From positions 7,260 to 71,259 of IMG/VR virus record IMGVR_UViG_3300027740_000183: DNA of 64,000 nt; one strand, written 5' to 3'. The position numbers and the translations under genes are program-made. Positions 10,928-57,826 of this stretch are shown piece by piece. The notes under the pieces are model-generated. The model did no database searches. It saw only the letters and a list, made by a program, of their open reading frames with translations, and was not told where the DNA came from. Within the stretch, counting starts at the first letter, position 1, and every line of letters starts with the position of its first letter. The DNA comes from a virus.

Positions 10928-11054
10928 TTGTAAAAAGGGATTAAAAGGTATCCCAGCCCCTTATAGACTGGGACATACTATAAACTTTGTTTTTATAATT
11001 TATGTTAAGTTGTAAAGAGATTTAAAGGTATTCCAGTGCCTTACAGATTGGGTA
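10928..11054 (+). repeat. Two tandem leader+CRISPR-like repeat units (repeats at 10939-10974 and 11019-11054)
   Basis: GATTAAAAGGTATCCCAGCCCCTTATAGACTGGGAC and a degenerate copy, each preceded by TTGTAAA; homologous to the array repeat at 46251. Confidence 0.85.
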
Positions 11055-11064
11055 TATTAATTTA

Positions 11065-12567
11065 ATGATTTCAGCTCGTTTAATATATAAAAATTCTGCC
11101 TCTTCCAAAGAGTTTAATTTAACTCGTTCTCAGATTATAGATAGGGGTATTTATAGCGGGGGTGCGTTAACAAATAACCCCGCTTCTTTTATCTTATCAA
11201 TAGCTCCCTTTGTAGCGTCAAGTTACGACGGTATGGTTATAGTAAGTGATGTAACGGAAACACTTACTATTACTGATGGTATAATAAGTTATGTGGTACT
11301 GTATGCTAAATATCAAAACGCTACCATACCGACACTACAACTAGTTGCTCTTGATGAAGCTACTTGGCTTACCTCTGCCAATAAAGACTACTTCATTACT
11401 TTTGCTAAAATAGACTTAACAGTGCCTTCTGGTGGTATACCTACCAGTGCAATCACCTATAACGAATCTGATTATGCGGAAACTCTAGGAAAAAGTCCCA
11501 TAAAGAGATCAGTAGCGAACGCGGCCGCGCTGCCTATAGTACAGAATAGGGAAGGGGATTTGAGAGTAACTACAGATACTGGGCACATCTGGAGCTGGAT
11601 TTCTGGTGCTTGGGTAGATTTGGTAGTACAAACAGCGGCAGCTACAACTTACACAGGTGGTCCCAATTGGGCTGATGGGGTAACAAACCCAGCTACTACT
11701 GTGGAATTACAGCTTGACAAAATTATCACTAATCTGGCAACCGCAGGAGGTTCCGCTAAAATTTATAGCAATGGGATTGCAGGTGCCCCAGATTCTATTG
11801 GTGCAGGTACTCTTTATAGCGCGCTGACTCAATTATTAGGACTTTCTAACATCAGGGGAAGACTTTACGAACAGAATGTTTGGACAGAGCTGAACCAATT
11901 TATAAACAGTAATGCTGGTTTTTATGCCGCATCATTTGAAACTACTAATCCTGCTCCTGCTGTCGGATCCGTTAGAGTGGTTCCACAAGCGGTAGAACCT
12001 ATTATACCTCAGGATGGGGGGCATTATGCTAACAGTGTAACTAAAACTTATAAAATAGCAGAAAACAATGAATGGAGAATAGTTAGTGAGCAGAGAAGTA
12101 GTAGAGTATTTTTGTATCCAATTACAAGTTTAGTGTCTAATTATAATGCTACTGGTTGGTACTTAGAAGATTATTGTGTGTATTGGCACAAAGGTGTGAG
12201 CGCATCTGCGCTTATTTTAACAGCTTCTTTGAACAATTTTATACCCGATGGATGTACCGTAACCAGGGTACGCGCTTATGTTACCCCAGGAGCAATCAGG
12301 GCACCTGGTAATAGGATGCGTTTATGGGGATACAGAAGAGCTAATAGCAGCGAAGTGCCCGCTGTTTTTGGGGGATTTCTTGCTTTTCCAGAAGATGATG
12401 GGACAACAAATCCTCAATGGATTGCTGCAAATGGGTTAACGCAAATTATTGATACTGATGCGTATCATTACCAAGTAGGCGTACGATCTGGGTCAGGTTC
12501 TGGGGGTGATAAGTTATTATCTTTAGAGATTACTTATACAGAGGGTAATTATCTTGCTGTACCCTAA
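11065..12567 (+). CDS. Probable virion structural protein (tail fibre/baseplate-associated)
   Basis: Beta-rich, G/T/A-rich; N-terminus resembles ORF 31075. Confidence 0.5.
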   Translation: MISARLIYKNSASSKEFNLTRSQIIDRGIYSGGALTNNPASFILSIAPFVASSYDGMVIVSDVTETLTITDGIISYVVLYAKYQNATIPTLQLVALDEATWLTSANKDYFITFAKIDLTVPSGGIPTSAITYNESDYAETLGKSPIKRSVANAAALPIVQNREGDLRVTTDTGHIWSWISGAWVDLVVQTAAATTYTGGPNWADGVTNPATTVELQLDKIITNLATAGGSAKIYSNGIAGAPDSIGAGTLYSALTQLLGLSNIRGRLYEQNVWTELNQFINSNAGFYAASFETTNPAPAVGSVRVVPQAVEPIIPQDGGHYANSVTKTYKIAENNEWRIVSEQRSSRVFLYPITSLVSNYNATGWYLEDYCVYWHKGVSASALILTASLNNFIPDGCTVTRVRAYVTPGAIRAPGNRMRLWGYRRANSSEVPAVFGGFLAFPEDDGTTNPQWIAANGLTQIIDTDAYHYQVGVRSGSGSGGDKLLSLEITYTEGNYLAVP

Positions 12568-12595
12568 ACCCTAAAAAATTAAGGATTAAAAATTA

Positions 12596-13687
12596 ATGAC
12601 AACAAAGATTTTAAAGAGATGCAGTGAAGATGCTCGTGTAACATTTATGTTGTTGCGCGAATTGCTCATTAATTGTGTAGGTTATACAGATATTTATACA
12701 GATGATGATGGGTCAGGAGCTTTTACAGCCTCTCAAACAGGAGTAGATGGGGAAACGGATATCAATAACCCCCAAAATTTTGTAGCCGCTTCTGGTGTTT
12801 TTGGTCCAGGTGATGTCGGTAAATACTTGGTTGTTTGTGATCCTTTGTTGCTTCATCATAACAATGTAGGTATTTATAAAATTGTTGGTGCTCCTAATAG
12901 TACCACACTTGCTATTCAAGGCGGATTATATGGTGGTTCTTTTACAACAGGAGTAGGTTTTACTTGGCGTTTAATGGATCCTGCTGGTGTACCTCCTGCC
13001 TTAGCGGGTTTTGATCTCACTTATGTAGTTCAAGCAGTATCGGGAACTAATCCGATATGGCAAGCAGAATTTTACCTTGCTGACGCAGATACTGTCAGTT
13101 TTAGAATTACCGTTGGTCCTGGGGGAGGTTACGATTCCACATTGTTGCCAGGTATTCCTTGGACATTATCTTATACAGATCCTGTTACCATGACTTGTGA
13201 TGTCACTTCTTTATGGACTATATTGGCAAGCGATAGTTACATTAGAATGTATACAGAAGCTGTTGGAGGTGCATCTGTATTTAATTTAGGGTATGTAGGT
13301 GCGTGTATACCAAGAAGATCTGCTGCAGATCAACAATTTGCTGTGTGCTTTGCCGACATTCCTTTAACCGCACTTACTGCTATAAAGTCTGTTGCGTGGG
13401 ATGGGGCTACCAAAGTAGATTATAGTGCTATTTATTATGGGGATCTTTTTCCTTCTAATATATTTACTGCATTACCTCCTTCTCAATTTGATTTAAGAAA
13501 CGATTCCGCACTTATTGCAATGGGTTGCGAAACAGCGGGGTCTTTAGAAGATGATAGAGGTACTTTGAACGGGGTATGCTGGATTAGTGATTCAATACCT
13601 TACAAAACTTTTGTGGATAATAGTAGAAGGGTACTGTCGCTTGGATCTGGAATTTCGATTGAGTGGGACGGCACAGTCGGGCGTTAG
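12596..13687 (+). CDS. Probable virion structural protein
   Basis: Beta-rich; shares GDVGKY.....P...N motif with next ORF. Confidence 0.5.
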   Translation: MTTKILKRCSEDARVTFMLLRELLINCVGYTDIYTDDDGSGAFTASQTGVDGETDINNPQNFVAASGVFGPGDVGKYLVVCDPLLLHHNNVGIYKIVGAPNSTTLAIQGGLYGGSFTTGVGFTWRLMDPAGVPPALAGFDLTYVVQAVSGTNPIWQAEFYLADADTVSFRITVGPGGGYDSTLLPGIPWTLSYTDPVTMTCDVTSLWTILASDSYIRMYTEAVGGASVFNLGYVGACIPRRSAADQQFAVCFADIPLTALTAIKSVAWDGATKVDYSAIYYGDLFPSNIFTALPPSQFDLRNDSALIAMGCETAGSLEDDRGTLNGVCWISDSIPYKTFVDNSRRVLSLGSGISIEWDGTVGR

Positions 13688-13721
13688 AAAAACCTGAAAG
13701 TTTAGTAATTAAGGAAAAATT

Positions 13722-57012: not shown

Positions 57013-57015
57013 TAC

Positions 57016-57246
57016 TTATTTATTTACAAAATCATTAGCCTTCCAGACAGCGTCTTCCATTTCGTGCGCATCTACTATATCAAGCACTTTAGTATTTTTT
57101 ACTAGAAATACAAGATACTTACCACCACGGGGGCTCAAGGAGGTATGTATGTGTGCTTCTTTTTGTGTTGTAGGGTTTTGTATTATTTTTATCGCGCAAT
57201 TAATCATGTTTTTACCCTTTCGTGGTGCCCACATATTTAGTAACAA
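57016..57246 (-). CDS. Hypothetical protein
   Basis: ORF track. Confidence 0.45.
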   Translation of the reverse strand: MLLNMWAPRKGKNMINCAIKIIQNPTTQKEAHIHTSLSPRGGKYLVFLVKNTKVLDIVDAHEMEDAVWKANDFVNK

Positions 57247-57772
57247 GTTCTTTTAGATAATTTTCGTCTATTTTTAACACTTGTTTTACTATCTCCACAG
57301 ATTTGTATTTAGAGATCACCCAAGTAAGTATTGTTTTTATGTTTGCGCCATATTTTGTTTCTATTTCGGCAACTTTTGGGTTATACTCAGCCGCACAGCG
57401 TTCACAGCAGTAGTGGAATATTTTATCATCTAGTTCTATTTGTTTATGCCCCTCTTTTATAAGTTTTTCACAACATAAACATATTTTATCATTATTCAAT
57501 ATCGTAAATTCTTTTTCTAGGGAAGAAAAATTAGGTACTTGTTCTCTTAATATCTTTAACGCAGTGTTAAAATCTTTTTTAATAGTTTTAATAGGTTTAC
57601 CTACCAATAAACTGATATCATATAAGGATAATTGGTTACTGCCTTGTTGTTCCATATAAATAAGACAACAATTGTATATATTTTTATACCTAGTGTGATA
57701 AATGCACCCTTCGTCAATACAATCAGTATTGATGAGTACCTGTGTTTTTGGGCATGTGGTTTTGAAGTTCAT
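57212..57772 (-). CDS. Putative DNA-binding regulator: sigma70 region-4-like HTH plus Cys-rich Zn finger
   Basis: LSLYDISLLVGKPIKTIKKDFNTALKILR; CLCC...YCCERC. Confidence 0.55.
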   Translation of the reverse strand: MNFKTTCPKTQVLINTDCIDEGCIYHTRYKNIYNCCLIYMEQQGSNQLSLYDISLLVGKPIKTIKKDFNTALKILREQVPNFSSLEKEFTILNNDKICLCCEKLIKEGHKQIELDDKIFHYCCERCAAEYNPKVAEIETKYGANIKTILTWVISKYKSVEIVKQVLKIDENYLKELVTKYVGTTKG

Positions 57773-57779
57773 AATGTTT

Positions 57780-57826
57780 TTTGCAGTTTATAAAGTGCTG
57801 AGATATTTCTTAATCATCTTTTACAA
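57780..57826 (-). repeat. Degenerate leader+repeat unit
   Basis: TTGTAAAAGAT GATTAAGAAATATCTCAGCACTTTATAAACTGCAAA; 26/36 identical to the 10939 copy. Confidence 0.65.

Follow-up and report, generated by a model that had tools for sequence, protein, structure and literature searches.

A CRISPR-like repeat dispersed at predicted transcript starts of a jumbo phage, possibly an RNA signal for a Cas processing protein

One 36-nt repeat, resembling those of CRISPR arrays, was dispersed through a phage genome and lay in sense orientation shortly upstream of genes at most loci. The analysed window comprised 64,000 nucleotides, bases 7260-71259 of the 137,151-bp linear virus contig IMGVR_UViG_3300027740_000183, which had an estimated completeness of 35%. 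The repeat copies listed in an initial annotation of the window were all recovered at the same coordinates. The contig held 17 copies at 12 loci, six of these copies being outside the window, and five more were present on other pieces of the phage, giving 22 copies at 17 loci. An overlapping assembly with 100% identity across 11.6 kb prolonged the contig and added two copies (one each in L119 and L120), and a third contig of 64.6 kb, L006, carried three. The DNA scanned amounted to ~173 kb of a ~390-kb phage, which is less than half of the genome. Positions 46396-46431 of the window served as the reference repeat. Allowing up to three mismatches, its 30-nt core had seven matches, compared with 0.00 expected from shuffled sequences. 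The favoured explanation, with a probability of roughly 0.45, is that CRISPR-derived repeats at transcript starts are recognised in RNA form by a Cas processing protein, serving both as processing sites and as decoys similar to RNA anti-CRISPRs (Racrs).

At 15 of the 17 loci, the repeat was located in sense 3-70 nt upstream of a gene start. The other two loci, the main array and the copy at 38101, ran into terminator-like hairpins. Dispersal throughout the genome and a strictly sense orientation at the 5' ends of transcripts, both proposed initially, were thereby supported. The shared orientation of 15 out of 15 gene-adjacent loci corresponds to p ~6e-5 for random and independent copies, a value that serves as a guide only because the copies are not independent. 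The motif TTGTAAAA occurred 22 times in intergenic DNA, whereas shuffled 8-mers averaged 2.05, with 18 occurrences of the motif directed toward gene starts and three toward gene ends. It was also found before many genes without repeat. At two of its sites, window-coordinates 72452 and 72615, TAAAAT was placed 16 nt after TTGACA. The sigma70-like promoters of the phage had a 16-nt spacer in 19 of 22 cases and a 17-nt spacer in three. Judged by sequence, TTGTAAAA is promoter-like and independent of the repeat, and its position directly upstream places the repeat at a predicted transcript start. Transcription would start no further than ~7 nt into the repeat, which fits the poor conservation of positions 1-3. 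Treating the TTGTAAA leader and the repeat as a single 47-bp unit was therefore not appropriate, since the leader is a general element that is frequent upstream of repeatless genes. The leader was described as preceding every isolated or first copy; this did not apply to the copy that opens the main array, and three copies outside the window had no separate leader. The designation as a 5'-untranslated-region module did not fit the 38101 copy before a terminator or one copy with a canonical promoter upstream and tRNA-Glu 3 nt downstream. The latter copy means that control of translation cannot be what the repeat does in general. A role of TTGTAAAA as the main late promoter was not supported, as none was found in sense before the capsid gene. 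A sigma-factor-like protein of 358 aa was encoded at L120:628-1704 and was conserved in three complete relatives.

The main array (46201-46431, + strand) consisted of a partial first repeat, represented by its last 14 nt only (46201-46214), and three identical repeats at 46251-46286, 46324-46359 and 46396-46431, with spacers of 36, 37 and 36 nt. A promoter-like element and a mini-array were located at 45099-45218 (+), where repeats at 45110-45145 and 45183-45218 enclosed a spacer of 37 nt. Direct repeats with unique spacers of near-constant length (36, 37, 36 and 37 nt) are characteristic of CRISPR arrays, and these measurements bore out the array geometry reported initially. The main array was flanked at its 3' side by a GGAC tandem (46432-46457, +), common to several solo copies, and further downstream by an intrinsic-terminator-like hairpin with a T run (46555-46581, +). 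The position of this hairpin on the + strand suggests that the array is transcribed from that strand. The mini-array ended 9 nt before the ATG at 45228, and a GGAGG ribosome site was present.

Solo copies were found on both strands. The TTGTAAAA element and the repeat 10939-10974 formed a unit at 10928-10974 (+). A second element with the repeat 11019-11054 followed at 11010-11054 (+); 10 nt further on began a conserved gene of 500 aa, which lies inside an operon in relatives. On the - strand, a promoter-like element and the repeat 55883-55918 (55883-55929) preceded a PHP-domain gene, and an element with the degenerate repeat 57780-57815 (57780-57826) ended 7 nt before the ATG at 57772. The distances of 10, 9 and 7 nt to start codons given in the initial annotation were correct, while the PHP gene had 46 nt to its ATG and 40 nt to a TTG. 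At 38091-38220 (+), a promoter-like element was followed by the repeat 38101-38136, a GGAC tandem and terminator-like hairpins at 38144-38160 and 38192-38220. With no credible sense open reading frame (ORF), this region resembles a stand-alone RNA unit. GGAC units, one to five in tandem, followed several repeats (38137-38148 in the window besides the flank of the main array, L002 after 8467, L006 after 4127 and L120 after 3094). They may result from slippage, mimic a ribosome site or represent CsrA-type GGA sites. Adjoining the 38101 copy, an Ig-like/ice-binding-like protein and a MotB/OmpA-like protein were encoded at 38577-41646 (-).

The gene following the main array (46724-47836, +, 370 aa) encodes the major capsid protein, so that this repeat-associated gene was discarded as a Cas candidate. 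The protein had ~35% identity to capsid proteins of Motura/Sauron-type phages and ~70% identity to counterparts in IMG/VR genomes of 388-424 kb, and this kinship identifies the source as a ~390-kb jumbo phage. A 299-aa paralogue with ~26% identity was located at 52973-53872 (-). Another gene behind a repeat, of 406 aa, encodes a probable spike. Contig L006 is probably another piece of the same genome. Its interpretation as an independent relative was rejected, as both contigs shared the run SRR10376091, the assembly ERZ27256988 and TnpB, and consequently L006 provides no cross-species conservation of the repeat.

The repeat was not found in any of 14 relatives, three of which are close and have complete genomes. 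These relatives nevertheless carried multicopy promoter motifs. Repeat units preceded core genes whose counterparts in relatives lie within operons, and some units extended over the stop codon of the ORF before them. The 3' flanks were common to solo copies and array units, comprising the GGAC tandem and the start of the third spacer, with 11 similar pairs compared with 2.0 in shuffled data (0 of 500 shuffles). These flanks suggest that a cassette of promoter and repeat was copied out of the array, presumably in this direction. They also disfavour the initially considered alternative that the array arose secondarily from a DNA site, again provided that the direction is read correctly. The shared flanks, the insertion before operon-internal core genes and the absence from relatives together point to recent copying of the cassette in this lineage. 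Three copies lay within a 4.8-kb stretch whose flanking genes were neighbours in all three complete relatives, and several copies were degenerate. Gene order was strongly rearranged compared with relatives, and the capsid gene was parted from its usual upstream gene. Matches in IMG/VR (L007-L020 and L026) were chance matches within coding DNA and were dismissed.

Conservation was uneven along the repeat, with 96% at positions 7-12, 90% at positions 20-28, 83% in the last 8 nt and 30% in the first 3 nt. Two interleaved helices can form, helix 1 between 7-11 and 20-24 and helix 2 between 13-18 and 30-35, which would make a pseudoknot possible. Over 18 copies, pairing was maintained at 96.7% in helix 1 and 84.3% in helix 2, and both partners had changed at the pairs 9-22 and 18-30. 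The same helix topology occurs in some type V repeats, which provides a lead only; a search for a paper on a Cas12m pseudoknot found none.

The favoured explanation can be put as a sequence of steps. A short orphan CRISPR array of the jumbo phage would be the source of the repeat. Together with a few flanking bases, the repeat would have been copied to numerous sites and become fixed directly downstream of promoters, after which the unit of promoter and repeat would have spread as a cassette via recombination. Transcripts would begin in the first ~7 nt, and the repeat would fold through 7-11/20-24, possibly as a pseudoknot with 13-18/30-35. In the least certain step, a CRISPR RNA-processing protein, supplied by the host or by the unread half of the genome, would bind and cut the leaders. 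Each transcript would thereby supply a Racr-like decoy, and the downstream mRNA or tRNA would gain a processed 5' end. An extended version, in which one repeat acts as the genome-wide 5' leader for a Cas processing enzyme and decoy output is coupled to the processing or stabilisation of phage mRNAs and a tRNA as a Cas-controlled regulon, is doubtful.

Several results weigh against this explanation. The covariation was matched by 33 of 500 shuffles, G-U outnumbered A-C by 13:7 overall without significance (p=0.26), and the repeat folded alone gave z=-0.62. Given the weak covariation, the non-significant G-U bias and the fact that helix 1 is also a DNA dyad, an RNA structure of the repeat is only suggested. 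No Cas1, Cas2, Cas4, Cas6 or RAMP protein was found in the 137-kb contig, and the only Cas-type matches by PADLOC were two TnpB-like genes. The initial statement that the window lacks cas genes therefore extends to the whole contig, and none appeared in the gene lists seen for the other phage pieces. For a host repeat, the GTDB genome collection was scanned with two strict, degenerate patterns, neither of which had an exact match. The spacers had no significant target in phages, plasmids, IMG/VR (two spacers, exact 20-mers), the 14 relatives or the phage's own DNA, and near-matches of 23/26 in G014 and 14/15 in L120 (p ~0.08) were treated as chance. The 37-nt spacer of the mini-array contained internal repeats and in this did not resemble a captured protospacer. 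Any decoy would, in addition, be in competition with the array carried by the phage itself. Finally, conservation in related phages was contradicted by the absence of the repeat from complete relatives, which is half of what the initial annotation had named as speaking against its proposal.

The two TnpB genes (L003:6004-7467 and L004:1426-2880) shared 87% identity, had intact catalytic motifs and were each located behind TTGTAAAA. A third copy was present on the 64.6-kb contig. As effectors of the repeat they are unlikely and were rejected, because element-like ends and a conserved 3' region are common to both and no anti-repeat was found; both look like ordinary mobile TnpBs. A type V-F (Cas12f) locus was likewise not indicated, with TnpB-like genes more than 40 kb from the array, in multiple copies with their own ends and without anti-repeat. 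A complete relative of 392 kb carried a compact dCas12f-like locus at L053:4400-6386 (G002:50400-52385, -) with a different, non-dispersed repeat. Its Cas12f/V-U3-like gene encodes 464 aa with the first RuvC Asp apparently replaced by His, and is accompanied by an anti-repeat and a 5-repeat array but no cas1. This locus is a probable nuclease-dead type V system and indicates that the phage group does acquire CRISPR modules.

The rival explanations treat the repeat as DNA, as a passenger or as a guide. In the form of a DNA operator, a dyad whose arms span roughly 4-11 and 20-27, with an 8-bp centre between them, would cover the transcription start and be bound by a phage repressor. The candidate DNA-binding regulator is a conserved 186-aa protein with weak helix-turn-helix (HTH) and TRASH leads (57212-57772, -; Atlas score 0.81, a lead only). 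The repeat would be situated at +1, a position typical of operators, the dyad arms are its best-conserved part while the 3' tail drifts, and the dyad is perfect at 45110. An operator would suit promoters of mRNA, tRNA and non-coding RNA equally, and the gene of the HTH-like protein itself bears the weakest copy. However, a dyad should tolerate both orientations, yet all 15 gene-adjacent loci were alike. The regular 36-37-nt unique spacers are left unexplained, the HTH-like gene is conserved in relatives without the repeat, and three copies are intercistronic without separate leader, so that an operator appears unlikely. Similar doubts apply to a neutral, recombinational cassette like the PeSL cassettes of T4-like phages (PMC4122927), in which the strong promoter of the array spreads by homologous recombination and shuffles genes while the repeat hitchhikes and decays. 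The common 3' flanks, the units before operon-internal genes, the three copies between adjacent genes, the degenerate copies and the lineage-specific repeat agree with it. However, synteny was broken in 5-6 of 8 repeat-containing intervals compared with 44-47% elsewhere, which is not significant (p=0.24-0.70), and the uneven, mostly pairing-preserving changes along the repeat suggest selection. This cassette model is rather improbable as well.

Much less probable are two further models. If each promoter and repeat produced a single guide RNA that had the downstream sequence as spacer and was taken up by a type V effector, be it the TnpBs or a Cas12 not yet seen, the dispensable 5' end of the repeat, the repeat-then-spacer order of array transcription, the stand-alone unit at 38101 and the compact dCas12f-like system of one relative would be accounted for. 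Downstream of the repeats, however, ribosome sites, start codons, a tRNA or AT-rich DNA without targets were found, and the TnpBs have the features of independent elements given above. This makes such guides very unlikely. A site for a tyrosine recombinase, with two arms and an 8-bp core and with the array and gene cassettes as integron-like integration products, is hardly probable. It would match the arm-core-arm geometry, a repeat-gene-repeat run at window-coordinates 99321-100530 and a XerC/D-like tyrosine recombinase gene (L119:4914-5831) in the phage extension that is missing from the three relatives. No repeat was located beside this gene, though, and the fixed 72-73-nt period and promoter position are not explained.

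Reading of the repeat as RNA by a Cas protein finds its closest parallel in Racrs. Viral solitary repeats frequently lie right behind promoters, and in RacrIF1 the stem-loop is essential, the 8-nt handle is tolerant and the processed 5'-OH end is more stable (PMC10651486). The copies described here are likewise phage-borne single CRISPR-like repeats behind a promoter and away from cas genes, with a stem more conserved than the 8-nt tail. In contrast to Racrs, which occur near acr genes, ~20 copies form leaders of core and accessory genes and a tRNA, and the matching array is the phage's own with no host repeat identified. Compact arrays without cas genes are frequent in huge phages (PMC7162821), and the short array with its 36-nt repeat and 36-37-nt spacers in a ~390-kb phage without visible acquisition genes is of this kind. 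It differs in the genome-wide dispersal of the repeat and in that no adjacent effector, host match or spacer target was found. PeSL cassettes also combine a multicopy promoter, a structured element and a ribosome site before genes in variable regions and are a plausible recombination substrate (PMC4122927). Their order is stem-loop, sigma70-like promoter and Shine-Dalgarno sequence, whereas the element here lies downstream of the promoter-like motif, is predicted to be transcribed and structured, and has a conserved sequence that is the same as that of an array repeat. The two-repeat mini-array and the solo copies resemble regulatory mini-arrays and standalone repeats, which occur in phages as well but are located in cas loci or target them via a spacer (bioRxiv 10.1101/2023.03.03.530964); no such target or locus was found here.

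Other features of the phage were recorded alongside. No Rfam family matched the repeat above the gathering score, and the only match in the window was HEARO at 58340-58601. HEARO RNA and fragments of IscB-type elements were present in several copies (58340-58601 on the - strand, 22000-22276 and 57930-58496). A similar N-terminal motif (MNKNI..RL.K.A) was shared by many genes (2434, 18160, 22558, 23946, 33460, 36136 and others) and was seen as DNA repeat families. A full TypA/BipA translational GTPase was encoded on the contig extension (L119:309-2144).

Solitary repeats as decoy RNAs and promoter cassettes as gene shufflers are both already known. The literature searched contained no description of one CRISPR repeat at ~20 transcript starts of a single phage, and a search with the repeat sequence returned nothing relevant. 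A fixed RNA end within the repeat is a directly testable prediction. If a Cas protein reads the leaders, synthetic biology's use of Csy4-type RNA processing would have a natural counterpart in the repeat, and counter-defence would be connected with the control of phage genes.

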